DNA from: Planctomycetota bacterium
GTDB lineage: Bacteria > Planctomycetota > UBA1135 > UBA2386
Assembly (NCBI GenBank): GCA_046290465.1
Contig: JBKAGP010000001.1
Location: forward strand, 5,312,001-5,376,000
DNA length: 64,000 nucleotides
Direction of reading: 5' to 3'
Part shown: positions 11,889 through 60,337 of the stretch, one piece after another
Layout of the letters: each line of letters starts with the position of its first letter
How positions within the stretch are numbered: the stretch's first letter is position 1
Position numbers and translations under genes: made by a program
The notes under the pieces: model-generated
The model's database searches: none
The model's input: the letters and a program-made list of their open reading frames with translations, nothing else
Told to the model about the DNA's origin: nothing

Positions 11889-11929
11889 CTGGCCACGATT
11901 CTGGCGGTGGCTTCGGCGAGCGCAACGGT

Positions 11930-15278: not shown

Positions 15279-15324
15279 TCGGCGCGCCACGATGGGGGCA
15301 ACGTGCGGCCGAGGCAAGATCGGG

Positions 15325-18558: not shown

Positions 18559-18563
18559 TCGAG

Positions 18564-21425: not shown

Positions 21426-21507
21426 CCGTAACCGCCCGCATGCTCCAGCATCGTGCGGCGGGAATCACGTTTCTTCCGTTCGGGGGCTCTGCTACCGTGC
21501 CGAACGC

Positions 21508-22599: not shown

Positions 22600-22611
22600 G
22601 TAGCGGTACCG

Positions 22612-26075: not shown

Positions 26076-26109
26076 CCCGCCGCAGCACCACGCTGCGAAC
26101 GACCACCGC

Positions 26110-29100: not shown

Positions 29101-29313
29101 CTCGCCGTCGCGCGCCTGCAGCAGCGGGTCGAGGTAGGACAGTTCGTGCTCGGGCAGGAACGAGCCCAGCAGCATCGACTCGCCGCAGCCGACGTCGAGC
29201 ACCGTGCCGCCGGCCGGCGCGAGCGCGCGTACGCCCTCGGCGGCTGCGGCATACCGGCTCCACTGGTCGAACAGGAAGCCTTGGGGAGGTGTGGGGCCGG
29301 GCTGGTCGGGCAT
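26110..29313 (-). CDS. Methyltransferase + coiled coil + GT4-like + GT2 multidomain glycan synthase
   Basis: N-terminal VLDVGCG...DVLEHVP; coiled coil ending SLSWRVTGPLR; QRPQHL...YDCMD...NPVKAYEALAAGKPVV; C-terminal VVDNDSQD...ILNND...FFEDDDY. Confidence 0.9.
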   Translation of the reverse strand: MPDQPGPTPPQGFLFDQWSRYAAAAEGVRALAPAGGTVLDVGCGESMLLGSFLPEHELSYLDPLLQARDGEHTGNGTIVGKPLDAASVPDDSYDVVVCVDVLEHVPAEARQRFVAQMVRASRLGVVIAAPFADVGEARRTDDIVHLAYHAKHGRDYDWLHEHELYGLPRLGDVEQQLRGDGLQVARFGNGHTPWLQDLLSLHVVLLDRAEHTPLLREMGDRFAEQLLRFDHLEPTYRQVVIAGRDAPTAPPHAPDDRATREAAREAWHRFRTWADARLSSYADQLVAQRDGTLEQLTLLRRRLDQANEQVACWREEIDEARTALDEANAELAQLRAAPSQAVDDLEAMQNSLSWRVTGPLRLALRLPGASARVVRKGLIALANRGARSKLADRWRWPLKVAFFAVFRPLLKDSREYADFLAAKRWRNRPAPPHVADVEPPHATLPDVIVFGVIDWHLRTQRPQHLAVELARRGHRVLYLSPAFQSSTQPGYQLDVVHERPRIHQVRLHTNRPTSIYEDVPPPVVSAFLIGGLRKLLGDVSLSTCIALVDHPCWIDLVEQVPRCLRIYDCMDNHHGFEDSGAGLPRAEQRLLHKSDAVIVTSNHIERDIAPQHDSVHMVRNACAPDDFAAATAAPPDGRRPVVGYFGAIAAWFDVDLVEAVARALPEVDFLLVGDDTAGVQKRLQHVRNVRFTGEVAYALLPEHLRLMDVLLIPFVINQLTLATNPVKAYEALAAGKPVVATPMPELIETDVRPFVRIGEDAEGIATALRAALADAHDPDAMAQRVAFARRQTWAHRAEALLEAVAAAPRPKVCVVVVSWNGLELTRRCVHSVLDDPMACELDVVVVDNDSQDDTPAWLDEIEQHPRVRVIRNDDNLGFAAACNQGLEAGATHDPDLLVILNNDLVVTPGWAWTLHHHLQDHPDVGLIGPVTNNIGNEAKIATSYTSVDEMLGEQRALTGRVAGQTFDIPVLAFFCVAMPFDVYRQVGGLDENFGQGFFEDDDYCQRVRGIGRRIVCAEDVFIHHELSASFDKIDQEARRRLFERNKAYYESKWGPWQRHEYRSRNSG

Positions 29314-29355
29314 CGGTGCGAGGGCGGCCCGGCGCAGCGCCGGGTGCCGCCTAGC

Positions 29356-36422: not shown

Positions 36423-36603
36423 CGCTGAGCGCGTCGGGCAGGGGCCTTGGACCGTCGGTGCCATCGATGGGCGGGGCCGCCTGTGGCCGTCGACGCCGGG
36501 CGTGGCCGGCTCCGGCGCGCCGCCAGCTGCGCGGTCGGGTCGTAATCTTGTGGCGGGTCCGGGCGCCGCGTGCCGCCTGCGACTCCAGAGCCACGAGATC
36601 CCC

Positions 36604-39111
36604 GTGTTCCATACCCGCACCTCCGTATTCTTCGCCCTCGCCATGCTGCTGGGGCTCGCCGCCGCGCTGCCGGCCCAGGTCGTGACCCTCTCGGGGGACG
36701 TCTACGACGGCCAGATCGGCCCGCTGCAGAACGACACCTTCCACTGCCAGAACATCCGCGTGCCGCCGGGGCAGACGCTGACGCTGTCGGGCGTCAACCT
36801 GAAGTTCCACGACAACCGGTCGTTCACGATCGAGGGCACGGTCGACGCCAGCCAGGGTGCGTTCCTGACCTCGGTGCACGACGACGCGGTCGGCGGTGAC
36901 ACCAACGGCAACGGCGCGGCGACGGTGGCGCAGGCGGGTGACTGGCAGGGCGTGCGGTTTCCGAGCGGTGCGACCGGCAGCTCGATCCTCAACGCGTCGA
37001 TCCGCCACGCCGGTCGCGGCGGCAGCCCGGCGCTGCGCATCAACAGCTCCTCGGTCGAGCTGTCGATGACCAACGCGGTGATCGGCGACTCCGACGGCGT
37101 CGGCGCCGAACTCGGCAACTCGCGGCCGATCTTCAACAACCTGCTGGTGGCCGACTGCGCCGGCGTCGCGATGACCGGCTCGTTCGTGATGCTCGACCGG
37201 GTCGTCAACTGCACGGCGTGGAACTGCGCGGGCGGCAACTACATCGAGCGGCGGACCGCGCCCGGCGGCCAGCCGCAGTGGCCGCTCAACGGGCCGGCGG
37301 CGCTGACGTTCGGGCCGCAACACACGCTGGGCGGCACCGGCGTGATGGTCGTCAACGGGGTCGTCAACGTGCCCGCGGGCAACCATCTGACGCTCGACCT
37401 TGGCCTCGACTGCAAGCTGACCGCGAACGGCGCGTTCCTGATCCGCGGCGGCTTCGAAGCGATCGGCACGCCAGCGGATCCGTCGGTGTTCACGTCGCTG
37501 CGCGACGACACGGTCGGCGGCGACACCAACCTCGACGGCGCGGCGACTTCGCCGGCGCCGGGCGACTGGCGTTCGCTGCGGTGTGACGCGGCGACCGGCG
37601 AGTTCGGCTTCGTCGACGCGGAGGTGCGCTATGCCGGCGGTTCGCTCAGCTTCGGCGGCGGGGTCCTGGTCGGCACCGGCCGCTGTGACGCGCAGCGGCT
37701 GACGGTGCGCGACACGCTCGGCTTCGGCATCGACTTCGGCGTGACCAACACGTCGAGCCCCAACCACTCGTCGGTCGTCGACTGCACGTTCGTCGACCTG
37801 ACCGACGCGGGCATCCACGACGCGCCGCTCGACGACCTGCCCGACCATCGCGGCAACCAGGCCGTCGGCACGACGCCGGCGGTCACGCAGGTGCTGCCGC
37901 TGCTGCGGCGCGACACCGTGGTCGGGCCGGCCAACCTGGTCGCCGGGGTCGCACACATCGCCGGTTCGGTCTCGGTGCCGTCGGGGCTGCGCCTGACGGT
38001 GCTCGACGGCAGCGCCTGGAAGTTCTTCAACGGCACGTCGATCACGACGCAGTCCGGCATCTTCGAACTGCTCGGCACGCCCGACGCGCCGATTGTGTTC
38101 ACGTCGCTGCTCGACGACACCGTCGGCGGTGACACCAACGGCGACGGTGCGGCGACCATGCCGGTGGCCGGCAACTGGACCGGCGTGCGCATGAACGGCT
38201 CGACCGCGTCGCGCGCCGTGCACTTCGACGTGCGCTACGCGACGACCGGGGTGCAGGTGCAGTCCTCGCAGGGCGTGCTGCGTGCGGCGCGCGCGCTGCG
38301 CTGCCGCGACGGCTTCTCGCTGTCGGCGCACCAGGGGCCGCTCGACAACCTGGTCGCCGCCGACTGCACCCGCGACGGCCTGCGGGTCTCCGGCAGCGGC
38401 TACGACGTGCGGCACGCGTCGGTCGCCGGCTGCGCCGACGCCGGCATCGACGCGACCGGCTTCTCCGGCGCAGTGCGCAACTCGATCGCGTGGAACAACG
38501 TCGGCGGCAACTTCGTCGGCATCACCGCGAGTTCGGTGTTCGACTCGTGCGGCGACTTCGCCGGCCAGAACGGCAACCTCGTCGCCAACCCGCAGTTCGC
38601 CGATCCGCTGGTGCTGACGCTGTCGGCGTCGTCGCCGTGCGTCGATGCGGCGGGTCTCGCCGCCGCGGTCCCGGTCGCGACCGACGTGGTCGGCAACTCG
38701 CGCGTCAGCGCACCCGGCTTCGGCCCGACGGCGCTGCCCGACATGGGCGCCTACGAGGTCGTCGGCTGTCGCCTGCTGGTCGATCGACCGGTGCCGCACG
38801 TCGGCGACACGATCACGTTCGGCCTGCTGCCCGGCAGCCCGGCCAACCACGGCCTCGGCTTCGTCGGCGCGGGCGTCGGCCACGTCGGCGGCCTGGCGCT
38901 GCTGCAGCCGTACGGGATCCTCAACACCGGCTTCCCGCAGCTGATCACGCTCGGCTTCGGGCCGAGCACGGCGGCGGTGCACTTCGCGGTGCCGCCCGAT
39001 CCGCTGCTCAACGGCTTCGAGATGTCGGTGCAGGGACTGCTGGTCCCGATCCCGTTCCCGGCGGGCGGCAGCCTGACCAACGTGGTCAGGCTGCGGGTGG
39101 TCGGGCCGTAG
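36604..39111 (+). CDS. Secreted parallel beta-helix repeat protein with three internal modules and conserved C-terminal domain
   Basis: GTG start with signal peptide [17 protein letters not shown]; three [12 protein letters not shown] repeats; ANPQF...SSPCVDA...DMGAYE motif. Confidence 0.8.
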
Positions 39112-39153: not shown

Positions 39154-40878
39154 TCAGAACGAGCCCAGCGTGCCTTCGATGCCGTTGCTGGTGATCGCGC
39201 CGAACGTGTTGACCGCCGGGTTGCTGAACGTCGCGGCCTGCGTGAACAGCTTGGAGCCGATCAGCGCCGCCGGCGTCGCCGGGATCGCCAGGTTGTAGGC
39301 GTAGGTCGAGCCGGTCGGGAACCACGGGCCGAGCACCAGATCGAGGTTGGCGCGCAGCTCACAGCCGGGCATGCCGAGGAAGCCGAGGTCCGGGATCGCC
39401 GGGTCGGTCTCGCCCCAGATCGTCAGGCCGAACACTGTCGTCGCCGGGATGTCGACGACCTCGAGGTCCCAGCTGCTGCCGAGCACCGGGTTGGTGACCG
39501 AGTCGAGCGACAGCGGGATGATGTCGGTGCTGCCGGTGATCAGCGCCGGCGTGGCCGAGATGTCGACCGCGCCCGGGTCGGCGCTCGGGCCGGCCGGCGA
39601 GTAGCCGACGAGCCAGTCCTCGGGGTTGGCGAAGCCGACCGTGCCGAAGCGGATCGCCCAGTCGCCGGTGATGACGTTGTAGTCGATCTGGATGTAGCAC
39701 GGGTCCTGCGTGTTCCAGCCGTTGACCCCGTCGTAGGTGACGCGGGTCTGGCCGGTCGCGACGTCTTCCTCGTAGGTGACCGTGCCCGACTGGTCGGGCT
39801 GCAGGTCGGTCCACGTGTAGACCGCGCCCGACGGGTTGTTGAGCAGCTCGTTGACGTTCGGCGTGAAGCCGTTGCTGTTGCCGGCGCCCATCGCGAACCA
39901 GCCGTTGGAGCCGACCGACATGCCGAGCGTGCCGGCGGCCACCTGGCCGTCGTCGGGCAGCGTCAGCACGGTGCCGCCGGCCGGATCGATGCCGCCGACG
40001 GGCAGCGGGCCGGTGCCGGCCGCGGTCAGCACCAGGTAGCCGGCGCCGGTGTTGGTGCCGGTGATGTCGGTGTTGGTCAGGTCGAACGCCGCCGTGTCCA
40101 TCTGCTCGTAGAACGACGTGAACTCACGGATGCAGCCCTGGCCGATCACCTTGGTCGCCGCCTGCACGCCGAAGTTGCACGCGACGATCGCGTAGCCGCC
40201 GTTGGCGTTGGACTGGTTGCTGAACGTGATCTCGGAGACCGCGTCGCCGACGAACGCGCTGAGGTCGATGCGACCTTCGGTCAGCGACAGGTTCTGGTCG
40301 GGGCTGGCCTGGTCGGTGCCGCCAGTGCCCGGGTAGGCGCCCTGGAACCAGTCGGGGCCCGACAGGGTCGCGGTGGTGGTGGCGCCGGTCAGGAACGTCA
40401 CGGTCACGTCGAACGAGCCGCCGCCGTTGCTGATCTGGTAGAGGAAGCCGAGGCTCGAGCCCGGCGTGACGACGATCGGCGTCGCCAGCACGGTCTGCTG
40501 CGGGCCGGTCTGGTCGACGACCGGCAGCCACGACGGCTGGATACCGATGTTGTCGCCGTCCGGCGTCGGATCGAACGCCCAGATGCCGCCGGCGACCGCG
40601 TTGCGGTTGCCGAGGTGCACGATGTCGAGCACACCCGGCGTCGCGACCAGGCTGTAGTTGGCGAGCAGCGGATCGCTCGGGATGCCGGCCGAGAAGTCGA
40701 GCGCGCGGTCCGAGATCGAACGGAAGCCGTTCGGGTCGTCGGGCAGGCCGGCTTCGCCGGCGTGGATCATGCCGTTGAAGTTGTAGTTGAGCGGGACGGG
40801 AGTGCTCTGCGCGGTGGCCGCAACCGTGGTGACGGTTGCGCCGGCGAGCAGCGAGAGCGAACGAAGGAAGCGGGTCAT
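39154..40878 (-). CDS. Secreted hypothetical protein with conserved C-terminal domain
   Basis: Signal peptide MTRFLRSLSLLAGATVTTVAATAQ; WTDL nidogen-like segment; C-terminal LGMPGCEL...LAIP...LFTQ...TSNG. Confidence 0.82.
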   Translation of the reverse strand: MTRFLRSLSLLAGATVTTVAATAQSTPVPLNYNFNGMIHAGEAGLPDDPNGFRSISDRALDFSAGIPSDPLLANYSLVATPGVLDIVHLGNRNAVAGGIWAFDPTPDGDNIGIQPSWLPVVDQTGPQQTVLATPIVVTPGSSLGFLYQISNGGGSFDVTVTFLTGATTTATLSGPDWFQGAYPGTGGTDQASPDQNLSLTEGRIDLSAFVGDAVSEITFSNQSNANGGYAIVACNFGVQAATKVIGQGCIREFTSFYEQMDTAAFDLTNTDITGTNTGAGYLVLTAAGTGPLPVGGIDPAGGTVLTLPDDGQVAAGTLGMSVGSNGWFAMGAGNSNGFTPNVNELLNNPSGAVYTWTDLQPDQSGTVTYEEDVATGQTRVTYDGVNGWNTQDPCYIQIDYNVITGDWAIRFGTVGFANPEDWLVGYSPAGPSADPGAVDISATPALITGSTDIIPLSLDSVTNPVLGSSWDLEVVDIPATTVFGLTIWGETDPAIPDLGFLGMPGCELRANLDLVLGPWFPTGSTYAYNLAIPATPAALIGSKLFTQAATFSNPAVNTFGAITSNGIEGTLGSF

Positions 40879-41023: not shown

Positions 41024-43165
41024 CTACGACATCCGCCAGGCGTTCCAGAACGACAGCAGGCGGTTCTGCAGCCAGCCACCGAGCAGCTGCACGCGCGCCG
41101 GCAGCAGCACCCGCGCGGTCAGGCCCGAGCCGCGCGCGTCGAGCGGCACCGAGTCGACCTCGAGCATCACGTGCAGGTACGGCCGGTCGGCCGCCAGCAG
41201 CTCGCCGCTGGTCCGGGTCACGTAGAGGTCGCCGCCGCCGAGCATCGTCAGGGCCGGCGGCACCTCGAAGCGCGACGCCGACGCGCGGATCTCGCGCACC
41301 ACCGCGCGCACCGAACGGGTCGGATCGCAGCTCCAGCGCACCTCGGCCTCGCTGTCGACCTCGAGCCGCGCGCGCGACACATCTTCTTCGGTCAGCACCA
41401 TGCGCAGGTAGCGGTGGCCGCTGTGCACCTGGAACAGCTCCTCGCCCTGTTGCACGAACCGTCCCGGCAGACGGTCGTGCAGCGGGCTCGCGATGGTGCC
41501 GTCGGCGTCGGCGCTGAGGCTCAGCGAGTACTGCCGCGCCTCGAGCTCCTTGACGCTGGCGGTCAGGTACGAGATGCGCGCCTGGTGGATCGCCGCCTGG
41601 GTCGGATCGTCGAGCTCGATCGCGTCGAGGCCTTCGCGTTCGGCGTCGAGCTCGCCGACCAGGCGCTGGCGCCGCATCTCGAGTTCGGGGTTGTGCAACA
41701 CCGCCAGCTGGTCGCCGGCTTCGACGACGTCGCCGTTGTGCACCTCGAGCTGCTGCACGAAGCCGCCGGTCGGTGCGCGCACCGACTGCCGTTGCTGCGG
41801 GTCGAGCACACCCGGCGCGACGATGCTCCACGAGATCGGCACCATGCCGCCGAGCAGCGGCAGTAGCGTCAGCGTCGCCAGCGCGACCAGCCGCGCGCGG
41901 GTGCGGTAGTCGGCGGTGGCCTTGCCGTTCCACAGGTGGATGGTCAGCGCCAGCACCGGCTTCGCGATCAGCGCCCACGCGAACACCACGCCGAGGAACA
42001 TGCCGGCCGCCGGCCACTGGGTCATCATCAAGCCGGTCAGCAAGAACGCGAGGGTGACGCGGTAGACGAACGCGGCGGGGCCGTAGATGCCGTAGAGCAG
42101 CCGTTCGGACGCTGCGTAGCCGTCGGGTGCGCGCGCCTTGCCGAGCGCCACGCGGTTGGCCCAGCCGTTGAGGAACGACTGCGCGCGCTGCTGCAGGTTG
42201 AACACGCCGACCAGGTCGCTGAACAGGAAGTAGCCGTCGTACTTCATCAGCGGGTTGACGTTGAACAGGATCGTCACGACGCTCGCCAACGCGATCACGT
42301 TGAAGGCCAGGTCGTGCACGAAGCCCTCGGTCGTGCCGGCCCAGACCAAGGCCGCGATCGCCGCGACGAAGGTCTCGAAGTACATGCCGCCGAGCGCGAC
42401 GACCGCGCGCTGCCGGGCGCCGGGCAGCTTCCACGAGGCGCCGGCGTCGACGTACGCGCACGGCGTCATCATGATCATCTGCACGCCCATCTCCGGCACC
42501 GACGCGCCGAACCGCTTGGCGGCGTAGGCGTGGCCGAACTCGTGCAGCACCTTCAGGCCGATCAGCGCGAGCCACAGCACCGGCAGGTTGGCGAGGGCCA
42601 GCAGGTTGCCGGTCTCGGCGAACATCTCGTCGAACCGGCCGAGGCACTTCCAGCCGACCAGCCCGAGCAGCGACAGCCACAGCAGCAGGCCGGGCCAGCC
42701 GAACAGCCAGCCGGTGTAGCGCAGCGTGCGATCGAGGAACGCGTCCGGGTTGCCGACCGGGATGCGGTGGCTCATCAGCATGCGGTACCACGGCCCGCTG
42801 CCGCGCGCCTGCTTCTCCAGCATGCGCTGGTAGGTCTGGTCGCCGCCGCTGATCGGCAGGTGCAGCAGGCCGATGCCGTGCAGCCACAGCACGAACTTGT
42901 AGAAGCCCTGGCGATCGTCGTCGTCGTCGTCGAGCACGTCGTCGCGGACCAGCTGCGCGTAGCACTCCCCGAGCGTGCGGTGGCGGACGATCGCGGTCAG
43001 CACGCGGTAGTCGGCGCCCCGGAACGCGTGGTTCTGGAAGCTGACCGGGTCGTGCACGACGTAGCGCACGCCGCCGCGGGTCTGCTGGCGCGTGAAGTGC
43101 AGGTCGCTGCGCAGGCCGACCCGGAGCGGGCCCAGCACGCGTTCGGTTCTGCTGGTGTCCGTCAT
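41024..43165 (-). CDS. M50 site-2 zinc metalloprotease fused to HlyD-like membrane-fusion domain
   Basis: LHEFGH (HExxH), CAYVD, NVNPLMKYDG and multiple TMs; C-terminal VRAPTGGFV...GDVVEAGD lipoyl-half, coiled coil and GRFVQQGEELF. Confidence 0.9.
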   Translation of the reverse strand: MTDTSRTERVLGPLRVGLRSDLHFTRQQTRGGVRYVVHDPVSFQNHAFRGADYRVLTAIVRHRTLGECYAQLVRDDVLDDDDDDRQGFYKFVLWLHGIGLLHLPISGGDQTYQRMLEKQARGSGPWYRMLMSHRIPVGNPDAFLDRTLRYTGWLFGWPGLLLWLSLLGLVGWKCLGRFDEMFAETGNLLALANLPVLWLALIGLKVLHEFGHAYAAKRFGASVPEMGVQMIMMTPCAYVDAGASWKLPGARQRAVVALGGMYFETFVAAIAALVWAGTTEGFVHDLAFNVIALASVVTILFNVNPLMKYDGYFLFSDLVGVFNLQQRAQSFLNGWANRVALGKARAPDGYAASERLLYGIYGPAAFVYRVTLAFLLTGLMMTQWPAAGMFLGVVFAWALIAKPVLALTIHLWNGKATADYRTRARLVALATLTLLPLLGGMVPISWSIVAPGVLDPQQRQSVRAPTGGFVQQLEVHNGDVVEAGDQLAVLHNPELEMRRQRLVGELDAEREGLDAIELDDPTQAAIHQARISYLTASVKELEARQYSLSLSADADGTIASPLHDRLPGRFVQQGEELFQVHSGHRYLRMVLTEEDVSRARLEVDSEAEVRWSCDPTRSVRAVVREIRASASRFEVPPALTMLGGGDLYVTRTSGELLAADRPYLHVMLEVDSVPLDARGSGLTARVLLPARVQLLGGWLQNRLLSFWNAWRMS

Positions 43166-43167
43166 CG

Positions 43168-45036
43168 CTACAGCCAGAAGTTCAGGTGCAGCCAGTCGGT
43201 GATGCGGTGCGTCAGCACCCACCAGGCGCTGCGCGAGCCGGCGTCGATGCGCGCGGTGCCCTCCATGCCGGGCGGCAGCAGGCCGAGGTCGATCTCGACG
43301 TCGGCCTCGCCGAGGAACACGTTCTGTTCGTCGACGATCGTGCTCGACGGCGCGATCGCCAGGTTGTCGAGCTGGTAGCCGCGGTCGGGTTCGGCCGCCG
43401 GCGCGAACTCGGCGCGCACGCACTCGTTGGCGGCGAGCACCATGCGCTCGGGAATGCGCAGCTCGATCGACGCGCGGTCGTAGCGGGCCAGTTCGAACAG
43501 CGGCACGCCGAGTTCGAGGCGGCTGCCGAGGCGTTCGCGCAGGTCGCCGTCGAGGATCAGGCCGTCGTGCGGTGCGCGGATCTGCGCCTGGGCGATGCTG
43601 GCGTCGACGATCGCCAGCTGCGCTTCGAGGCTGCGCTTCTTGGCTTCGTTGACGCGCACCTGGCCGGCCTCCCGTTCGCCGACCGCCTGATCGATCAGCG
43701 CCGCCAGCGACTCGATCTCGGCGTTCAGCTCGGCGCGCTGCAGGAAGTCGTCGCTGGCGTCGATCGCGGCCAGCAGCTGGCCCTCCTGCACGCGGTCGCC
43801 CGGCCGCACGAACAGCTCGGCGAGCACGCCGGCGCGCGGGCAGGCGATCGTGCGCCGGTCGGTCGCCTTGACGGTGCACGGCACCGTGAACGTGTGGTGC
43901 AACGTGCCGAACGCGAGCCATCCGGCGAGCCCGAGCACGGCCGCGATCAGCGTCAGCGCGCGGGCCGGGCCGCGCGCGAACAGGCGCCGCACGTTTTGTC
44001 GCACCAGGTCGAGGGCGTGCTGCCGCAGGCTGCGGTTGGCGGTCAGCGACAGCGGCACCAGCGCGGCGTAGCCCGACAGCTCCTCCTGCATCAGCACGAC
44101 CTGGTCGCGCGTCAGCCGGGTGCCACCGCCCTGGCTCATCGAGACCACCGCGACGATGCGGTCCGTGAACCGCAGCGGCAGCGATGCGACCGCGTTGCCC
44201 TGGTGGCGCTGGCTCCACTGCGCGTGCAGCCGGCAGTCGTCCTCGTCCTCGCCCTCGCCCTCGCTGTCGCGGCCGCGGCAGACGATCGGTTCGCCGCGGT
44301 CGACGCATTCCTCCATCGCCGAACGGATCGCCAGCACGCCCGGGTTGGACGGCCGCACGTGGTCGACGCCGCTGATCGCGGCGACCTGCACGGCGCCGCG
44401 CTGCACGAAGCCGACGGCCGCCATCTCCAGGCCGTAGCGCGATCCGAGGTCGCCGAGAATCGCGTGCGCCAGGCGCATCGGGTGCTCGGCCTCCTCGGAC
44501 GGCCGCATCTCGCGCCGTTCGGCGCTGCGGCGGATGCTCGAGCCGCCCTGGTCGAACAGCAGCGAGACGTAGCCGAGGATGCCCTCGAGCTGCGCCATGA
44601 TCTGCAGGATGTGGGCGCGGTCGCACGGCGGCAGCACCAGCGCCGCACCGCCGGACGGCTCGGCGCCCTGGTCGTACATGACGACCGTCAGCAGCAGCAG
44701 CGCGTTGCCACCGGGCTTGAGCCGGACACAGCGCGCCTCCTCGCTGGAGACCGACTCCCACAGCGCCTGGTTGATGCGGTCGCGGTCGTCGGTGTCGATC
44801 TGGTCGTCGTCGCCGCTCCACTCCTCGGACAACACGTGCATGCCGAGGCGGGTGTGCACGACCGCGTAGAGGGCGCCGAGGCGCCGGCAGATGCGTTGCA
44901 GGGTCTCGGCCAGCGCGCGGTTGCCGGGGCGGTTGGCGAACAGCTCACGCAGTTCGCACTGCAGCGCGGTCAGGCTGGTCGCCGCGGCCGTCTTCTCGCT
45001 GGTCGCGACCTGGGTGTTGTCGTCGGGGGTGTGCAA
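43168..45036 (-). CDS. GAF-like domain + HlyD-family periplasmic adaptor
   Basis: AIRSAMEECVD...VASLPL GAF-like region, one TM, then IACPRAGVLAELFVRPGDRVQEGQLL, hairpin and IRAPHDG. Confidence 0.85.
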   Translation of the reverse strand: MHTPDDNTQVATSEKTAAATSLTALQCELRELFANRPGNRALAETLQRICRRLGALYAVVHTRLGMHVLSEEWSGDDDQIDTDDRDRINQALWESVSSEEARCVRLKPGGNALLLLTVVMYDQGAEPSGGAALVLPPCDRAHILQIMAQLEGILGYVSLLFDQGGSSIRRSAERREMRPSEEAEHPMRLAHAILGDLGSRYGLEMAAVGFVQRGAVQVAAISGVDHVRPSNPGVLAIRSAMEECVDRGEPIVCRGRDSEGEGEDEDDCRLHAQWSQRHQGNAVASLPLRFTDRIVAVVSMSQGGGTRLTRDQVVLMQEELSGYAALVPLSLTANRSLRQHALDLVRQNVRRLFARGPARALTLIAAVLGLAGWLAFGTLHHTFTVPCTVKATDRRTIACPRAGVLAELFVRPGDRVQEGQLLAAIDASDDFLQRAELNAEIESLAALIDQAVGEREAGQVRVNEAKKRSLEAQLAIVDASIAQAQIRAPHDGLILDGDLRERLGSRLELGVPLFELARYDRASIELRIPERMVLAANECVRAEFAPAAEPDRGYQLDNLAIAPSSTIVDEQNVFLGEADVEIDLGLLPPGMEGTARIDAGSRSAWWVLTHRITDWLHLNFWL

Positions 45037-45050
45037 CCGTTCCTCGGGTC

Positions 45051-45434
45051 TCAGCTCAGGTCGACGGGGTGGGCGAAGCGGAACCGCAGCTCGAACGACG
45101 TGTCGCTCAGCATCGTGCAGCGTTCGCAGACGGCCAGCGCCGGCGGCAGGTCGGTTGTGGCGCGGTCGAAGCGCAGCTGGAACACGCTGCCGACCATCAC
45201 CGGCTTCGGTGCGATGCCGGACAGGCCCTGGTCGCCGGTGTCGCCGGCCTGCAGCTCGGTCTCGGCGCCGTCTCGGTCGCAGGCGTTGGCCGCGTGCACC
45301 TCGACGCGCATCGGCCTGCCCGGCGCCTTGGCCTCGCGCAGTTCGGCGACGTTGGTCGTGCAGCGGACCTCGAGGTCGTCCAGCAGCGCGTCCTGGGTGT
45401 CGTTCATCTCCGGGTGGTTGTCGAACTGGTGCAT
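45051..45434 (-). CDS. Small PilZ-like beta-barrel protein (degenerate motifs)
   Basis: GAGGA RBS upstream; DTGDQGLS...PVMVGSVFQLRF...AVCERC...FELRFRF matches the PilZ strand pattern. Confidence 0.55.
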   Translation of the reverse strand: MHQFDNHPEMNDTQDALLDDLEVRCTTNVAELREAKAPGRPMRVEVHAANACDRDGAETELQAGDTGDQGLSGIAPKPVMVGSVFQLRFDRATTDLPPALAVCERCTMLSDTSFELRFRFAHPVDLS

Positions 45435-45442
45435 GGCGTTCC

Positions 45443-46297
45443 TCACTTGCCGGACGGCGCGCTCGGGTCGTAGGCCGGGGCCGGCTCGATCAGCATCTTG
45501 AGCCCGGTCTTCCAGTCGTGGTCGGGGTTGGCGATCGACGCGCGCACCATGAAGCTGTGGCTCGACGCGTTGGCCTTGGGCGACAAGAACGTCACTGTCG
45601 CGATGCGGGTGTCGGTCGGTCGACGCGCCGGCGCGACCAGCACCCGGGTGCCGACGCGGAACTCCTGCTGCTGCTGGATCGGGCACTCGAACTCGATCCA
45701 CAGCGGGTCGAGGCACATCACCTCGACGACCGGCACGAACTTCTCGACCGCTTCGCCGGCCTGCTTGTAGCGCGCGGTCACGACGCCGGCGAACGGGCTG
45801 TGCACGCTGCGCTGCGCCAGCCGTTCCTCGGCCTGCGCCAGCTGGTTGTGCGACTGCTTCTTGTCGAGCGTGGCCTGCTCGAGCGCCAGTTCGGCGAGCG
45901 CCAGCTCGTGCTCGTACTTCTGCACGTCGTGCTCGCTGCGGATGTCCTTCTCGAGCAGGTCGCGCATGCGTGCCGCCTGCTGCTGGCAGTGCTGCAGGCT
46001 GACACGGGCGCGCCGTTCGAACAGGTCCGAGTCGGCGAGGCGCCGCAGCCGCTCGACCTCGAGCTGCTCGAGCGTCGCGTTGAGGCGGAAGACGACGGTC
46101 TCTTCGGTCACCTTGTCGCCGGCCTGCACCGCCAGTTCGACCAGCTTGCCGGCCTGCTCGGGGGAGACCAGCGCGACCTTGCTCGGCACGGTGATGCCGA
46201 CCAGCGAACCCGGTGGCGCCACCTCGCGGCGGGAGCCCGATGCGCTGGCGAACACGGTCGCCAGGCCGAGCGCAGGGAGCAGCAGTTTGCAGGACAT
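45443..46297 (-). CDS. Efflux RND/HlyD-type periplasmic adaptor subunit
   Basis: Signal/anchor, SPEQAGKL...AGDKV, coiled hairpin, SPFAGVV...GEAVE and SPKANASSHSFMVR...NPDHDWKTG. Confidence 0.88.
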   Translation of the reverse strand: MSCKLLLPALGLATVFASASGSRREVAPPGSLVGITVPSKVALVSPEQAGKLVELAVQAGDKVTEETVVFRLNATLEQLEVERLRRLADSDLFERRARVSLQHCQQQAARMRDLLEKDIRSEHDVQKYEHELALAELALEQATLDKKQSHNQLAQAEERLAQRSVHSPFAGVVTARYKQAGEAVEKFVPVVEVMCLDPLWIEFECPIQQQQEFRVGTRVLVAPARRPTDTRIATVTFLSPKANASSHSFMVRASIANPDHDWKTGLKMLIEPAPAYDPSAPSGK

Positions 46298-46376
46298 CGT
46301 GCCAGGTCATCGGACTTGGGGGTGTCCCTGGTGCAGGGGAACGCCGCGCGCGCCGCCAGGCCCGATGGCACCGGCG

Positions 46377-49300
46377 CTACGAGTCGCGCTTCCTGCGGCC
46401 GGTCTGCGCGCCGAAGAACGCGAGCAGCGCCCCCCAGATGCGGCCGACGCCGCGCGCGCCCTGCTCCTCGTCGGTGTTGGCCCGTTCCTGCTGCGACTCG
46501 ACGTGCTCGTCGATCGACAGCGAGCGGCTGGTCATGCCGACCGGCTCGACCTGCACGGTGACCTCCTGCACGACGCGTTCGCCGCCGCTCCAGACCTCGA
46601 CCTCGAACACCAGCTCCTCTTCGACGAACAGCTCCGGGGTGCGGATCCGCAGCATGCCGTCGGCGCCGGACGCGTCGAGGTCGACCGGCGTGCCGGAGAC
46701 CTGGGTCCAGCGCGCGTCGGCCAGCTCGGCCGCGGTCGCCTCGGCCGCCGCGCGGGCGGTCAGCTCGATCGCGTCGCCGGCCTCGACCAGGACCAGGTCC
46801 GGCAGCTCGATGCGCGTGCCGGCGGCGGTTGCCGCCGCCGCGGGTTCCTCGAGCAGGTTGGCGTAGTAGCTGTCGAGCCCGGCCTCGGACGCGTCGCCGG
46901 TCAGGTTGGAGGACCGCAGCTCCTCGTCGCCCGCGGCCGTGTTGTCGCCGGCGTCGTCGCTGGTCGCGCCGGCGTCGGCGTCGAGCGTGACGCTGGCCAG
47001 GAGGCCGGGGGAACCGTCGTCGTCGCTGCGGTCGTCGAGGTCCAGCGAATTGCCGGCAGCGGTCGCGAGCATGTCGTCGAGCCGGTTGCTCGCGCTCGAC
47101 TGGATCGCCTCGCGGATGCGGTCGGCGGCCTCGTCGCGTTCGCTCGTTGCGGCATCGACGGTGTCGCCGCCCGAGGCATCGTCGGTGGTGGTCGGCGCGG
47201 GCTGCGGCGCCGGCGTCGCGGCGCTGGCGGTGGCCGCCTGCACCTGCACGTTGACGACCTGAATCGTCGCCCGGTCGCCGTCGAACACCTCGACCTGGAA
47301 CGTCAGCGTCGTGTCGACGTCGACCTCCGGCGCCTGGAAGCGCAGCTGCGGCTGGTCGTTGGCCGGCATGCGCGCGGTCGGGCCGCCGACCTGCGTCCAG
47401 CGGAACCGCAGCGGGTCGCCGTCCGGATCGGCCGCGTTGGCCTGGATCACGCCCGGCGCGCCGGAGGCGAGGTCGGGCACGCCGTCGATCGTCACCTGCG
47501 GGCCGACGTTGGGCGCGACCACGACCGTCACGGTGTCGAACGCCTGGTTGGTGCCGTCGTCGACCCCGGCCACGAACGTCAACACGGTGCCCTCGGGCAG
47601 GTCGGGCGCGGTGAACGTCGGCGCGCCGCTGTCGCCGTCCTGCAGGTCGACCGACGGCCCGCCGATCTGGCGCCATTGGTAGCTGAGCGTGCCGTTCTCC
47701 GGGTCGCTGGCGCGGGCCCGGAGCTGCACGTCCTGGTTGCGTCGCACCACCTGGTCGTCGCCGGCGTCGATGCGCGGCGCGTCGTCGTCGGCCTGGATGC
47801 CGAACGTGACCAGATCGGTCGAGCTGTTGACGCCGTCGCTGACGGTCAGTTCGAACTGCACGATCGTATTGCGCATCGACTCCGGCGCGCGGAAGCGCGT
47901 GGTCGCGCTGTCGGCGTCTTCGAGCTGCACCGTCGGCCCCTGCACCTGACGCCACGAGTAGGTCAGCCCCTGGCCCTCGGGGTCGGTGCCCGAGCCGCGC
48001 AGCACGACGACGTCGCCCTCTTCGACGGTCGCGTTGCTGCCGGCGTCGGCGGTCGGGGCGTCGTCGTCGCCGCCGACGGTGATCTCGACGGTGTCGACGC
48101 TCGACACGTTGGTGCCGTCGGAGACCGTCAGCTCGAACGTCAGGCTGCTGCTCGAGGTCGTTTCGGGCGCCGTGAACGTCGGCTGGGCGGCGTTGGCGTC
48201 GCTGAGCGTGACGGTCGGCCCGCCGGTCTGCACCCACGTGTAGGTCAGCCCCTGGCCTTCGGGATCGCTGCTGCCGAGCCCGTTCAGCGTGACGACGTCG
48301 CCCTCGTCGACGCTCTGGTCGGCGCCCGCGTGCGAGCTCGGCGCGTCGTTGTCGGCGTTGACCGTGACGGTCACGGTGTCGACGCTCGAGACGTTGGTGC
48401 CGTCGCTGACGGTCAGCTCGAACCCGACGCTGGTGTTGCTGATCCCTTCGGGCGCCGTGAAGGTCGGCTGCGCCGCGTTGGCGTCGTCGAGGGTCACGGT
48501 CGGACCGCTGACCTGCGTCCACGTGTAGGTCAGGCTCTGGCCCTCGGGGTCCGTGCTGCCCAGCCCCGTCAACGTGACGACGTCGCCCTCGTCGACGATC
48601 TGGTCGGTGCCGGCGTCGGCGGTCGGGGCGTCGTCGTCGGCGTTGACGGTGACGACGACCCGGTCGGTGGTGAAGTTCTCGCCGTCGCTGACGGTCAGCT
48701 CGAACTCGAGCGACGAGTTGACCAGGCCTTCGGGCGCTGCGAACGTCGGCGCCGACGTGGTCGCGTCGTTGAGCGTGACGCTCGGGCCGCTGACCTGGGT
48801 CCAGTAGTACTTCAGCTCGTCGCCGTCGGCGTCGAAGCTGGCGCCGCCGTCGAGCGTGACCTCGGTGCCCTCGGAGACCACCTGGTTGGCGCCGGCGTCG
48901 GCGACCGGCGCGCTGCCGGTGTCGCTGTCAGCCACGGCAGCGGCCGCCATGTCGCTGAATTGGATCGACGCGATGCCGGTGTAGTTGATGACGAAGGACG
49001 TATCCTTGTCGATGCTGACCGTGATCGTCTTGCCGCTGATCACGGCGTCGGTCGAGGCGTAATTGGACAGGTCGATCGTGTCGGTGCCGCGGTTGCCGGC
49101 GACGGTGTACTCGGCGCCGGCCTGCGGGTTGGAGAACACGAACGTGTCGTCGCCGGCGCTGCCCTCGACGCGCTCGAAGCCCAGGATCGTGTCGGTCCCG
49201 GCGGCGCCGGTGTCCTGGGGGTTGCCGTCGGTCAGGTCGACCGTGACCCCGCCGTCGAAGCCCACGTAGCTGAGCGTGTCTGTGCCCGCGCCACCGTCGA

Positions 49301-49739
49301 GGCGGTCGTCGCCGGCGCTCGCGTAGACCATGTCGTCCCCGCCCCCGGCGTCGATGAGGTCGTCGCCGCCGCTGCCGACGATCGTGTCGGCATTGTCGGA
49401 GCCGGTCACGCCTTCGATGTTCTGCAGGGTGTCGCGGCCCGCCGAGCCCGTAACCGTGCCGGCCCCGAGGTCGACCAGTACCGTGCCGCCAGCGCTGGAG
49501 TAGTCGACGATGTCGATCCCGTCGCCGCCGTCGAGCACGTCGTTGCCGTCGGCGCCGACCAGCACGTCGTTGCCGCCGAGGCCGGCAAGGTTGTCGTGTC
49601 CGTCGGTGCCGGTCACCGTCTCGTCGCCGTCGGTGCCGGTGATCCACGTCGCCGACAGCAGGATGCGCGGCTCGACGGTCTCTCCGCCGAGCGTCGGCTT
49701 GTCGTTCTTCTTTGGCGTCTGGTCGTCTTGCTTCGTCAC
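46377..49739 (-). CDS. LEPRxLL-leader exoprotein with RTX Ca2+-binding repeats and PKD/REJ-like Ig domains
   Basis: GTG start with GAGGA RBS; VEPRILLSATW; GGNDVLVGADGNDVLDGGDGID nonapeptides; APxADAG...WTQVSGP...PTFTAP repeats; C-terminal hydrophobic and basic tail. Confidence 0.88.
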   Translation of the reverse strand: MTKQDDQTPKKNDKPTLGGETVEPRILLSATWITGTDGDETVTGTDGHDNLAGLGGNDVLVGADGNDVLDGGDGIDIVDYSSAGGTVLVDLGAGTVTGSAGRDTLQNIEGVTGSDNADTIVGSGGDDLIDAGGGDDMVYASAGDDRLDGGAGTDTLSYVGFDGGVTVDLTDGNPQDTGAAGTDTILGFERVEGSAGDDTFVFSNPQAGAEYTVAGNRGTDTIDLSNYASTDAVISGKTITVSIDKDTSFVINYTGIASIQFSDMAAAAVADSDTGSAPVADAGANQVVSEGTEVTLDGGASFDADGDELKYYWTQVSGPSVTLNDATTSAPTFAAPEGLVNSSLEFELTVSDGENFTTDRVVVTVNADDDAPTADAGTDQIVDEGDVVTLTGLGSTDPEGQSLTYTWTQVSGPTVTLDDANAAQPTFTAPEGISNTSVGFELTVSDGTNVSSVDTVTVTVNADNDAPSSHAGADQSVDEGDVVTLNGLGSSDPEGQGLTYTWVQTGGPTVTLSDANAAQPTFTAPETTSSSSLTFELTVSDGTNVSSVDTVEITVGGDDDAPTADAGSNATVEEGDVVVLRGSGTDPEGQGLTYSWRQVQGPTVQLEDADSATTRFRAPESMRNTIVQFELTVSDGVNSSTDLVTFGIQADDDAPRIDAGDDQVVRRNQDVQLRARASDPENGTLSYQWRQIGGPSVDLQDGDSGAPTFTAPDLPEGTVLTFVAGVDDGTNQAFDTVTVVVAPNVGPQVTIDGVPDLASGAPGVIQANAADPDGDPLRFRWTQVGGPTARMPANDQPQLRFQAPEVDVDTTLTFQVEVFDGDRATIQVVNVQVQAATASAATPAPQPAPTTTDDASGGDTVDAATSERDEAADRIREAIQSSASNRLDDMLATAAGNSLDLDDRSDDDGSPGLLASVTLDADAGATSDDAGDNTAAGDEELRSSNLTGDASEAGLDSYYANLLEEPAAAATAAGTRIELPDLVLVEAGDAIELTARAAAEATAAELADARWTQVSGTPVDLDASGADGMLRIRTPELFVEEELVFEVEVWSGGERVVQEVTVQVEPVGMTSRSLSIDEHVESQQERANTDEEQGARGVGRIWGALLAFFGAQTGRRKRDS
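47240..48912 (-). repeat. Six tandem ~93-aa PKD/REJ-like domain repeats
   Basis: Units begin APVADAG, APTADAG, APSSHAG, APTADAG, APRIDAG and GPQVTIDG; near-identical DNA in units 2-4 (DPEGQ-LTY-W, FELTVSDG). Confidence 0.8.
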
Positions 49740-49753
49740 GGTCGGTCCTCGGT

Positions 49754-52450
<2,697 letters not shown>

Positions 52451-52458
52451 CTTGAGGT

Positions 52459-53436
52459 TCAACGCCTGGCCCTCCGTCGCTGCAGCTCCGGCAGCGCCGA
52501 GCCGAGGCTGCGCGACAGCGGCGCCAGCGCGCTCTCGGCGCACGGTTCGCTCAGCGGTCGGCCCTGCAGCTGGTTGCAGGCCTTGCGCAGGGCGACGTCA
52601 CGGTGTTCGCGCACCGGTCGCAGCGACTGGATACGCAGGTTGCGGTCCAAGGCCCAGCGCAGCGCGTGGCGTTCGATGTCGCGGGTGCCCTCGGTCCAGG
52701 CGACGCAGCCGAGGAACGTGTTGCCGCTGTCGTAGGCGTACAGCACCCTGGTCTGCAGCGTCTGGTGCACGCCGCCGCGATCGAGTTCGACCGGCGCGGT
52801 GCGGCTGGTGAAGCGGGCCGCGGCCGGGAACAGGTCGAAGCCGGTGGCCCGGTCGTGCAGCTTCTCGATGTCGTCGCGCCAGACGGTGTCGAGCACCGCC
52901 AGCGTCTTGGCGGCCGAGCGCAGGGTCGTGCGTTCGAGCGCGCCGAGGTCGGCCTTGCGCGGCTCGCCGCGGTGGCGGGCCAGCAGCTTGACGAGGTCCT
53001 GGAAGTCGGCGCTGGTGAGGTCGTCCGCGAACCGGCCGCGCTCGAGCGACTTGATGTTGCGGTTGCGGCCGCGCAGGTAGCGGAAGCCGACGATCCGGCG
53101 GTCGAGCGTGACGTGCCAGGCGACCTCGGTCAGGCCCCAGTCGGCCTCCTCGGTGCGGCGGTAGACCAGGCCGACCGGGCGGCGGCCGCGGAACGCGACC
53201 AGCAGCGTGTGCTCGCCGAGTTCGTCGAAGTGCACCTTGAACGGCAGCAGCCGCTCGATGCGCGCGCGCGCCTCGAGGCCGACGTCGCGCTCGATGCAGC
53301 GGTAGGCGTCGGCCTCGGGGAACGCGCGGAACACGATGCGTTGCATCTGCTCGCGCTCGCGCTTGCTCTGGGCGGGCAGCGCGGTCGCGGTCGCCACCAG
53401 CGCGGCCGTGGCGGCGGCCGCGAGCGTGCGGGCCAT
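52459..53436 (-). CDS. Exported protein with two FMN-binding-domain-like modules
   Basis: Signal peptide ATALPAQ; repeated (A/L)FPxA...AxxxxxxxGxV...Wxxxxxxx(I) pattern resembling RnfG/FMN_bind folds; no SGAT motif. Confidence 0.5.
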   Translation of the reverse strand: MARTLAAAATAALVATATALPAQSKREREQMQRIVFRAFPEADAYRCIERDVGLEARARIERLLPFKVHFDELGEHTLLVAFRGRRPVGLVYRRTEEADWGLTEVAWHVTLDRRIVGFRYLRGRNRNIKSLERGRFADDLTSADFQDLVKLLARHRGEPRKADLGALERTTLRSAAKTLAVLDTVWRDDIEKLHDRATGFDLFPAAARFTSRTAPVELDRGGVHQTLQTRVLYAYDSGNTFLGCVAWTEGTRDIERHALRWALDRNLRIQSLRPVREHRDVALRKACNQLQGRPLSEPCAESALAPLSRSLGSALPELQRRRARR

Positions 53437-53515
53437 CTGACGAGTGAACGAAACCAAGGTATTTCCCTGGCTTCGAATCGGTTTGTGGCCGGAGCAGGTT
53501 TAGCCGGCCCGGGCG

Positions 53516-54286
53516 TCAGTTCGGGACGTTGTCGGACCCGTCGGTGGCAGCGGCGTCGTGCCGTCGTCCGTCCCGGATCCAGACACCGTCGACCAGCAGC
53601 TCGTGCGGTCGGTAGTCGGCCTTGTAGTGCATCGTTGCGGCACCCTCGACCCAGAAGCCGAGGTAGTAGTGCGGCACGCCGCGGCGCGCGGCCTCGGCGA
53701 TCTCGACCAGCACCGAGTGCACGCCGATGCTGCGGTGGCGTTCGTCCGGATCGAAGAAGTGGTAGACCGACGACCACGAGCGCGAGCTGCAGTCGAGCAG
53801 GCTGACGCCGACCAGCCGTGCGTCGACGAAGTAGCGCGCTTCGAGCGTGTCGACGACGCGGTCGTAGAACGAGGCGCGGAACTCGTGCTCTTCGTCGCTC
53901 TGGGGCGTGCCCGGATGCTGTGCATGCAGGTAGCGGCGGTACAGCTCGAACGACGCGGAGGTGAACTCCGGGACGCCGAAGCGCACCGTCACGTCGCGGT
54001 TGCGACGCAGCACGCGGCGCTGGCTGCGGCTCGGCCGGAACGTGTCGGTCGCGACCCGCAGCGGCACGCAGCGGCGACAGTCGGGACAGTCCATCGCGTA
54101 GAAGATCTGGCCGCTGCGGCGATAGCCGCGGTCCATCAGATCGTGGTAGAGCTCCGGTGGCAGCGTCTCCGCCGCAAAGCCGTACTGGCGCGCGCTGCGC
54201 CCCGGCAGGTAGGGGCAGTCGTAGAGCGGCGTGCGCGGCAGCTCCTGCCGTTCGAGCCAGCTCAGGAAGGCGCCGTCGTCGTGCAT
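53516..54286 (-). CDS. bpt: Asp/Glu leucyltransferase (bacterial ATE1 homologue)
   Basis: CPYLPG, GYRRSG, CPDCRRCVPLR, SRSQRR, SSVYHFFDP, YLGFWV and MHYKADYRP. Confidence 0.9.
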   Translation of the reverse strand: MHDDGAFLSWLERQELPRTPLYDCPYLPGRSARQYGFAAETLPPELYHDLMDRGYRRSGQIFYAMDCPDCRRCVPLRVATDTFRPSRSQRRVLRRNRDVTVRFGVPEFTSASFELYRRYLHAQHPGTPQSDEEHEFRASFYDRVVDTLEARYFVDARLVGVSLLDCSSRSWSSVYHFFDPDERHRSIGVHSVLVEIAEAARRGVPHYYLGFWVEGAATMHYKADYRPHELLVDGVWIRDGRRHDAAATDGSDNVPN

Positions 54287-60229: not shown

Positions 60230-60337
60230 GTGGCAGGCCGGGCGCGGCCGCGCCGGCGGCCCCACCGCTGTCATCGGCGCCGGTTTTTCCGAGAATCCGG
60301 GCGCACTGTCGCGCCCGCTCGGCAGAAGCCGTCGACG

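Follow-up and report, generated by a model that had tools for sequence, protein, structure and literature searches.

Classical type I secretion relies on HlyB, HlyD and TolC, or on LapBCE for giant adhesins with repeats-in-toxin (RTX) domains, and its cargo bears a C-terminal signal with the RTX repeats just upstream. A gene set of another composition was found by genome comparison in Planctomycetes, Verrucomicrobia and Proteobacteria, and contains a secondary SecA_DEAD protein, a Peptidase_M50/HlyD protein, a GAF/HlyD protein and an HlyD protein, with or without an outer membrane efflux protein (OEP), and no ATP-binding cassette (ABC) transporter (Kamneva, Poudel and Ward, PLoS One 2015; PMC4452313). 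It was proposed that SecA_DEAD supplies the ATPase activity and that the M50 protein is a candidate component of an inner-membrane pore (Kamneva et al., 2015). The accessible portions of that article name no cargo (the word “substrate” is used once, generically), report no experiment, and make no mention of PilZ, of LEPR-XLL, or of the recognition element (RRE) domain associated with peptides that are made by the ribosome and modified after translation (RiPPs) (Kamneva et al., 2015). Here, we describe a related locus from a Planctomycetota bacterium (assembly GCA_046290465.1), found within the 64,000-nucleotide stretch at positions 5,312,001 to 5,376,000 of contig JBKAGP010000001.1 (the window). 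Five adjacent genes encode an exoprotein that is the presumed cargo, a stand-alone HlyD adaptor (HlyD1), a small PilZ-like protein, a GAF-HlyD protein and an M50-HlyD protein, and we refer to the genes beside the exoprotein as the cassette (Table 1).

The published module and the window have in common the M50-, GAF- and plain HlyD proteins side by side and the absence of an ABC transporter. They differ in that the window has no secondary SecA, either in the locus or in the genome, has no OEP in the locus, and has a PilZ-type gene. A description of the core module has been in print since 2015; what the window contributes is a sub-variant from planctomycetes that lacks the SecA motor and has a PilZ-derived protein and a cargo marked at both ends. 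A preliminary description of the window, made without database searches, knew of no mechanistic characterization of such gene sets; we likewise found no functional study of the cassette in the literature library searched, although the module itself had been described (Kamneva et al., 2015). LEPR-XLL appeared in the same search as incidental mentions only, and in a preprint on giant genes (10.1101/2023.11.21.568195) SecA_DEAD occurs in another context.

We propose, with moderate confidence, that the cassette encodes a dedicated machine that spans the envelope, is guided by the leader of the adjacent LEPR-XLL protein, and both matures and exports that protein. The cargo would pass N-terminus first, and no ABC transporter would take part, nor would a SecA paralogue in this lineage.

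The M50-HlyD protein

The M50-HlyD fusion matches Peptidase_M50 in Pfam (PF02163, 1.1e-6, 28.6 bits against a cut-off of 27.2) as well as HlyD_D23, and the HEFGH and NPLMKYDG zinc-ligand motifs noted in the preliminary description are indeed intact. His208, Glu209, His212, Asn304, Pro305 and Asp310 are invariant across 92 homologues, and by these motifs the protein is of the M50 (site-2 protease) type. Full-length relatives number in the hundreds, are ~710-730 amino acids (aa) long, and come mainly from Planctomycetota metagenome bins; identities among homologues fall to 31-40%, which indicates long-term purifying selection. Matches to two NCBIfam families of leader peptidases, daptide_HExxH (NF041824, 2.9e-31, 109 bits) and YydH/EpeP/LiaK (NF058609, 2.4e-7, 30.7 bits), lie far under the respective cut-offs of 300 and 225 bits. 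M50 proteases are established as peptidases of RiPP leaders, and one of them, EpeP, is believed to perform both cleavage and export of its peptide (PMC10885120).

The preliminary description read this protein as a fusion of M50 and HlyD parts, and both are present, but a further N-terminal domain had been overlooked. A confident AlphaFold2 model built with the 92 homologues (mean predicted local distance difference test, pLDDT, 87.6) has an N-terminal domain of three strands and three helices, next a membrane domain built of helices, one of them bearing HExxH, together with a beta-hairpin, then a lipoyl/beta-barrel adaptor whose helical hairpin has ~25 residues per arm, and last a C-terminal helix. 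A Foldseek search with the whole model returned adaptors only (MacA, MexA, AcrA and EmrA; E 7.5e-11 for MacA/MexA), so the N-domain was folded alone. A sequence search of the PDB gave adaptors (LipC, HlyD chains) and a marginal match to mjS2P (3b4r, E 0.008).

Modeled alone, the N-domain (pLDDT 84) has strands at residues 23-29, 32-39 and 44-48, followed by three helices. Its best structural matches by VIA-align are a lasso B1 protein with bound leader (6jx3_B, Z 9.2, root-mean-square deviation 2.5, 85 of 85 residues aligned) and TbiB1 (Z 9.1), with TigE, PqqD, MibB, ThcOx, TbtB, the PbtF RRE, LynD and NisB further down a list dominated by RRE proteins. Family profile searches gave no match for the sequence of the N-domain. 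From the predicted structure, the N-domain probably has the leader-binding RRE fold. Such a fold fits the similarity of the membrane domain to the daptide and YydH/LiaK leader peptidases, as well as the view that EpeP both cleaves and exports its peptide.

The exoprotein and its association with the cassette

The exoprotein matches HemolysinCabind (3.2e-13) and, over six stretches, K319L-like PKD (2.1e-88) in Pfam, and begins with a LEPR-XLL-type leader (NF012209). This family scored 15.8 bits by hmmscan, where the cut-off is 17, and 19.7 bits in a six-frame search of the genome, in which the exoprotein is the sole LEPR-XLL match above the cut-off. Glu23 and Arg25 are invariant across 18 aligned leaders, from the window and 17 others. 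No hydrophobic signal-peptide core is found in the leader of the exoprotein, where the sequence past the motif reads ILLSATWITGTDGDE, and the cargo has no further recognizable export signal. RTX repeats stand directly behind the leader in the window and in four related loci (L003, L013, L023 and L049), an arrangement that argues for N-terminus-first passage.

To place the locus in context, related loci were collected around M50-HlyD relatives, of which 80 were kept from at least 548 (one genome per species, flanks of up to 10 kb). A long open reading frame (ORF) with a LEPR-type N-terminus adjoins the cassette in 17 of the 80 by regular expression, or 18 with L008, added by eye, and many other large neighbors run off the locus at the 5′ end. 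The loci with LEPR-type neighbors span Planctomycetota, Verrucomicrobiota and one Ramlibacter genome. The regular expression itself flagged 21 loci, and its chance matches (in L019, L040, L057 and L063, along with further ORFs of L013) were dropped by eye.

Over whole genomes, LEPR-XLL proteins and the M50-HlyD gene co-occur. Among 201 Planctomycetota genomes, 56 have M50-HlyD, 34 have LEPR-XLL above the cut-off, and 31, spread over 18 families, have both; the three LEPR-XLL genomes among the 145 that lack M50-HlyD are all marginal (E 0.004-0.036). Fisher's exact test gives p ~8e-18, a value that overstates the significance because related genomes are not independent. The association with large exoproteins mentioned in the preliminary description is borne out by both counts, the 17 of 80 loci and the 31 of 34 LEPR-XLL genomes with M50-HlyD. 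The window's own genome has one M50-HlyD gene and one LEPR-XLL gene, and these are adjacent. Three other genomes (G006, G055 and G106) have 10-17 LEPR proteins against a single M50-HlyD match, suggesting that one machine may serve several cargoes.

The exoprotein is also marked at its other end. A conserved C-terminal tail reads IWGALLAFFGAQTGRRKRDS in the window and ..LWGLxRGxGG.. in relatives, and in the window's own genome such a tail is found on the exoprotein only. The motif is present in 16 of the 26 loci with a small PilZ-type gene (PilZ-type loci) and in 1 of the 54 others, and that one (L028) lies within the PilZ clade described below. The leaders divide in a similar way, in that PilZ-type leaders have acidic RTX repeats immediately after the motif, in contrast to the leaders of L051, L058 and L038, which are verrucomicrobial loci with a SecA-like gene and have an Ala-rich hydrophobic stretch after the LEPR motif, resembling a signal-peptide core. 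Leaders of different architecture may thus be recognized by the two types of cassette, and both termini of the cargo co-vary with cassette type.

Conservation of the cassette and the question of a motor

Genes in the 80 loci were predicted with a simple caller based on codon-position G+C content (GC3) and length, and their products were clustered. The caller missed genes, for example around L004, L006, L007 and L053, so the family counts are lower bounds. M50-HlyD is present in 76 of the 80 loci, GAF-HlyD lies directly upstream of it in 70, a stand-alone HlyD occurs in 40, and the small PilZ-type protein in 26 (27 with L017). When only the 42 loci whose flanks are full are counted, the caller found GAF-HlyD in 38, an HlyD1-like protein in 26, PilZ in 15, a SecA-like protein in 16 and TolC in 10. 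The five-gene set is a conserved unit.

The preliminary description had noted that no ABC transporter, resistance-nodulation-division (RND) pump or TolC is encoded at the locus, and this holds. No ABC family matched the five cluster genes or five flanking ORFs, and when 29 ORFs of the window were scanned, the sole ABC transporter to emerge was a Wzm/Wzt glycan exporter (23960-26384), ~15 kb off. The same 29 ORFs gave no RND or OEP family match; elsewhere in the genome there are ~21 OEP matches in roughly 11 genes. The absence of an ABC transporter extends to the relatives. In a six-frame search, the triad of Walker A, signature and Walker B motifs was found in 2 of the 80 loci, in both cases in an Opp/Dpp-like importer two genes away, and a HlyB/PrtD transporter, which the preliminary description had held to speak against its reading if consistently present, is not a feature of these loci.

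Two further families came out of the neighborhood survey that the preliminary description had suggested. A ~660-aa protein in 24 of the 80 loci is a truncated SecA whose P-loop domain is half present, alongside SecA_DEAD and the preprotein cross-linking domain (Pfam), and a ~650-aa protein in 15 is TolC/OEP (Pfam), including one in the PilZ-clade locus L017. Because of these proteins, the family at large is not motor-less. The GEGKT (Walker A) and DEAD motifs of the SecA-like proteins are intact in 23 of 24. Against the P-loop_SecA profile, which has 205 positions, their best stretch covers just 1-101 or 1-102, and no SecA domain beyond the three named was matched.

The PilZ-type and SecA-like genes are never found in one locus. 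By the caller, 26 loci have PilZ only, 16 SecA only, 8 SecA and TolC, 7 TolC only and 23 none of the three, and L017, one of the 7 with TolC only, carries a PilZ ORF on later check. In a quick maximum-likelihood tree of M50-HlyD with 73 rows (and a midpoint root for drawing only), all 24 PilZ rows fall in one planctomycete clade of 33 rows with support 100, and 20 of the SecA rows fall in another clade of 24 with support 97. When 25 small ORFs of SecA-type loci were examined, two were DUF3467 proteins, one was PilZ (L017), and the others were unrelated or without a match. The two DUF3467 proteins (L065:7373-7777 and L071:7672-8085) sit just upstream of GAF-HlyD in SecA-type loci, in the slot of the PilZ-type gene.

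A secondary SecA is absent from all 26 PilZ-type loci, and the window's own genome has a single canonical SecA. Three of five complete genomes with PilZ-type loci likewise have canonical SecA only. Among the genomes compared, no SecA beyond the canonical one is present in G000, G001, G003 and G004, and in G002 and G005 each extra short SecA adjoins its own extra copy of M50-HlyD, the PilZ-type copies being without a short SecA. This distribution points to a PilZ-type cassette without a dedicated ATPase.

It is possible that the cargo is moved in two steps, an explanation that we consider unlikely. The exoprotein would cross the inner membrane through SecYEG, with the housekeeping SecA as the driving force in this lineage and the SecA paralogue in others. 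M50 would have no role beyond that of a dedicated peptidase for the leader or an anchor, and a periplasmic intermediate would be taken across the outer membrane by the adaptors together with TolC. A SecA-like ATPase with a preprotein-binding domain next to M50-HlyD, its Walker A and DEAD motifs nearly always intact, would suit such a scheme, and so would the signal-core-like Ala-rich stretch in the SecA-type leaders; the window's genome also retains the canonical SecA that would be needed. The window's own leader has no hydrophobic core past the motif, though, and the simplest place for the RRE domain is the cytoplasm, where it would capture the cargo before translocation. The SecA paralogues also cover only the first half of P-loop_SecA, in line with the view of Kamneva et al. 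that the protein is an ATPase only and unable to form a pore (PMC4452313).

The missing motor could also mean that the PilZ-type cassette is a decaying, non-working remnant of a SecA-type system that lost its motor and TolC. An ATPase found neither in the locus nor as a paralogue in the genome would fit decay, as would the degenerate PilZ motifs in the window's clade (see below). Decay is very improbable in view of the genes themselves, since the 33-row clade retains full-length genes, the five frames of the window are open with a strong GC3 bias, the catalytic residues are invariant across the homologues, M50-HlyD identities as low as 31-40% speak of long-term purifying selection, and the cargo retains conserved motifs at both its N- and C-termini.

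The other adaptors and the PilZ-like protein

The domains that the preliminary description assigned to the exoprotein, HlyD1, GAF-HlyD and M50-HlyD were all recovered in Pfam and NCBIfam, and three cluster proteins bear HlyD/membrane fusion protein (MFP) regions. HlyD1 matches RND_mfp (TIGR01730, 2.2e-33, 115.6 bits against a cut-off of 94.9) and HlyD_D23 (3e-17), and its N-terminus has a signal-like hydrophobic stretch. GAF-HlyD matches GAF (3.4e-6), HlyD_3 and Biotin_lipoyl_2 in Pfam, and a single transmembrane helix is predicted at ~aa 360, between a cytoplasmic sensor region and a periplasmic adaptor.

The small protein was described earlier as PilZ-like. Itself it has no match in Pfam or NCBIfam, PF07238 included, and the assignment stands by way of its homologues, which are present in 26 loci and of which the three tested match PilZ (PF07238) at 1e-10 to 1e-11. 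Most PilZ-type homologues retain RxxxR and D/NxSxxG, the motifs that bind cyclic di-GMP (c-di-GMP); both are degenerate in the window and in L003 and L005-L007. By its sequence, the small protein of the window is probably derived from PilZ and not a c-di-GMP binder.

A proposed mechanism

Under our proposal, the LExLEPRILLSATW leader would be bound by the cytoplasmic RRE domain of M50-HlyD and clipped at the inner membrane by the M50 domain, trimming of the cargo being probable. The adaptor domains of HlyD1, GAF-HlyD and M50-HlyD would together make up a duct through the periplasm, leading to a channel of the TolC family whose gene lies elsewhere, and the calcium-driven folding of the RTX repeats outside the cell would ratchet the chain outward, a principle known from CyaA. 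The GAF region and the PilZ-like protein may gate or assist on the cytoplasmic side, the latter perhaps by reading the conserved tail at the C-terminus of the cargo. Candidate energy sources in the PilZ-type variant are the housekeeping SecA, the proton-motive force and the calcium ratchet. The interpretation given in the preliminary description is partly supported by the present analysis, which bears out a conserved gene set without an ABC transporter and its link with LEPR-XLL proteins. As suggested there, the M50 membrane domain may replace the ABC transporter, the three adaptors may form a heteromeric conduit, and the leader may be cleaved; leader-guided export without an ABC transporter is plausible.

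Several observations weigh against this proposal. All of its support comes from sequence, synteny and predicted structure. The LEPR-XLL match of the exoprotein is borderline by hmmscan (15.8 against 17 bits), and Foldseek, which also ranks 6jx3_B first for the N-domain, gives it an E of 4.3e-3, above 0.001. Site-2 proteases normally cut membrane-embedded segments, and the cargo leader has no hydrophobic core. Within the locus, TolC is absent, the c-di-GMP motifs of the PilZ-like protein have degenerated, and the PilZ-type variant as a whole encodes neither a motor nor an obvious protein-conducting channel; HlyD1 was not called in 16 of the 42 full-flank loci. The predicted complex of M50-HlyD residues 1-445 with cargo residues 1-60 is weak, at a score of 0.55 (best control 0.00), with runs sharing at least 62% of contacts and a partner pLDDT of at least 44. 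Calibration placed 116 of 157 solved complexes at or above the mark, against 2 of 215 mismatches, and scores of 0.60 or less were obtained for only 18 of the 157 solved complexes and for both of the passing mismatches. Taken together, the RRE-like N-domain and this weak complex score make leader recognition by M50-HlyD plausible. Finally, 25 of the 56 genomes with M50-HlyD have no LEPR-XLL match, which suggests that the machine may also serve other cargo.

These 25 genomes would equally suit a cassette that does not export the large protein at all. It would clip, and perhaps export, an N-terminal peptide, or signal in the style of regulated intramembrane proteolysis, and the large protein would take another route or stay cell-bound. 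An RRE joined to M50 is the architecture of a RiPP leader peptidase, and the GAF domain, PilZ and the hybrid kinase upstream suggest signaling. We regard this explanation as quite unlikely, because a duct across the envelope is indicated by the three MFP-type adaptors and by TolC in 15 of 80 loci, because the cargo has no other recognizable export signal, and because both of its termini co-vary with cassette type.

The proposal of a leader-guided exporter can be taken further for the PilZ-type cassette, in a form that is conceivable but doubtful. Here the cassette would be a self-sufficient route without a dedicated ATPase, in which the RRE-M50-adaptor protein captures and clips the LEPR leader, a membrane oligomer of M50 and GAF-HlyD is the passage, RTX folding pulls the chain through the adaptor-TolC duct, and the tail is read by the PilZ-derived protein, which thereby gates release or tethers the cargo. 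If true, such a route would mirror classical type I secretion together with the retention of LapA and deserve a secretion-system type of its own.

The cassette bears on how giant leader-tagged proteins leave the cell. LEPR-XLL proteins are among the largest bacterial proteins, with open frames of up to 11,600 residues in the 201-genome sample, and have no recognized export signal. A leader-binding domain, an intramembrane protease and three adaptors, with a SecA-derived motor or none, would, if the proposal is true, be a distinct solution to secretion in Gram-negative-type envelopes, and would extend RiPP-style leader recognition to large proteins. The motor-less PilZ variant is the sharpest case in which to ask what drives translocation, whether M50 is part of the protein-conducting passage, and whether an RTX ratchet works N-terminus first.

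Locus layout and neighboring genes

The G+C content of the window is ~71%, so long spurious ORFs are abundant, and gene frames were chosen by a GC3 plot, with one frame per segment, together with the ORF list. Every gene from 39.1 to 54.3 kb lies on the minus strand in the frame plot, which agrees with the five co-oriented, tightly spaced genes of the preliminary description. They are transcribed in the order exoprotein, HlyD1, PilZ-like protein, GAF-HlyD and M50-HlyD, with intergenic gaps of 79, 8, 14 and 2 nt.

Table 1. Features of the cluster and of the adjoining regulator, in window coordinates
Feature	Coordinates	Strand	Details
Exoprotein, presumed cargo	46377-49739	-	1120 aa; GTG start; GAGGA 8 nt upstream; GC3 frame
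LEPR-XLL leader motif VEPRILLSATW, aa 22-32	49644-49676	-	Lys-rich stretch precedes
RTX calcium-binding repeat block, ~aa 34-190	49170-49640	-	HemolysinCabind x4 from aa 34; NCBIfam RTX-type aa 30-188; GGxGxD-type repeats
Conserved C-terminal tail RIWGALLAFFGAQTGRRKRDS	46380-46442	-	Amphipathic stretch and basic end
HlyD1, stand-alone HlyD/MFP adaptor	45443-46297	-	284 aa
Small PilZ-like protein	45051-45434	-	127 aa
GAF-HlyD	43168-45036	-	622 aa
GAF domain of GAF-HlyD, aa 191-320	44077-44466	-	Pfam GAF
M50-HlyD (RRE-M50-HlyD fusion)	41024-43165	-	713 aa
RRE-like domain of M50-HlyD	42851-43165	-	Predicted fold
M50 membrane domain	41846-42748	-	Family matches
HEFGH, aa 208-212	42530-42544	-	Zinc-protease motif
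NPLMKYDG, aa 304-311	42233-42256	-	Zinc-protease motif
Adaptor part of M50-HlyD	41027-41839	-	MacA/MexA-like
Hybrid histidine kinase	49754-52543	-	Pfam HisKA, HATPase_c, Response_reg x2 (two receiver domains); ends 14 nt upstream of exoprotein start

The hybrid histidine kinase is kept upstream in five close loci (L003-L007) and is likely a regulator in the window's sub-clade only. Upstream of it, a 332-aa protein (52459-53457, minus strand) has a signal-peptide-like start and no family match. By tblastn, homologues of this protein stand at the equivalent position in L003 (227 bits) and L007 (142 bits), so it may be part of the regulatory genes of the sub-clade. Still further upstream is an arginyl-tRNA-protein transferase (ATE, NF002346, 1.9e-65; 53516-54286, minus strand) that is probably unrelated.

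Just downstream of the cassette are two large proteins of secreted type. The first (574 aa; 39154-40878, minus strand) has no family match, and the second (869 aa; 36502-39111, plus strand) has a choice-of-anchor Q domain. Neither has homologues in any of the 80 related loci, and both were excluded as members of the system for that reason. The Wzm/Wzt exporter belongs to a polysaccharide cluster at 10791-29355 that also encodes GT4 and GT2 glycosyltransferases, a UDP-GlcNAc 2-epimerase and a 1081-aa methyltransferase-glycosyltransferase fusion, and this cluster is unrelated to the cassette. At 60230-63364 (plus strand), a 1044-aa protein has sigma-70 regions 2 and 4 fused to CarboxypepD_reg/Big-like domains, an unusual fusion.

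Comparison with known secretion systems

With type I secretion, the cassette shares MFP-type adaptors of the MacA/MexA/HlyD kind and a cargo that carries RTX repeats and no Sec signal, and related loci may likewise depend on a channel of the TolC family. It differs in having no ABC transporter of the HlyB/PrtD type, three adaptor-bearing proteins instead of one, and a metalloprotease fused to an adaptor. The placement of signals also differs, as the cassette's signal is N-terminal, with the RTX repeats at that same end, and the C-terminal tail is a different, clade-specific motif.

Peptidase-containing ABC transporters (PCATs) serve peptides with double-glycine leaders and use a C39 cysteine protease. 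As proposed for the cassette, they recognize an N-terminal leader and remove it with a protease within the export machine. The cassette protease, in contrast, is a zinc-dependent intramembrane M50 enzyme, no ABC domain is present, and the cargo is a protein of more than 1000 residues, not a peptide. In the RiPP M50 leader peptidases, both the daptide (NF041824) and the YydH/EpeP/LiaK (NF058609) families, the HExxH membrane domain aligns with that of the window's protein, where an RRE-like fold precedes it. Here the window differs through its C-terminal MFP fusion, its giant non-RiPP cargo, and its GAF and PilZ partners.

Proteins of the Alg44 type, in which PilZ, a transmembrane segment and an MFP domain are joined, act in polysaccharide secretion. 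There, as in the window, the cytoplasmic side has a domain of the second-messenger type that is linked to an MFP-like domain in the periplasm, as part of a secretion machine. The window differs in that PilZ stands alone as a small protein, that GAF is the sensor joined to the adaptor, and that protein is the material carried.

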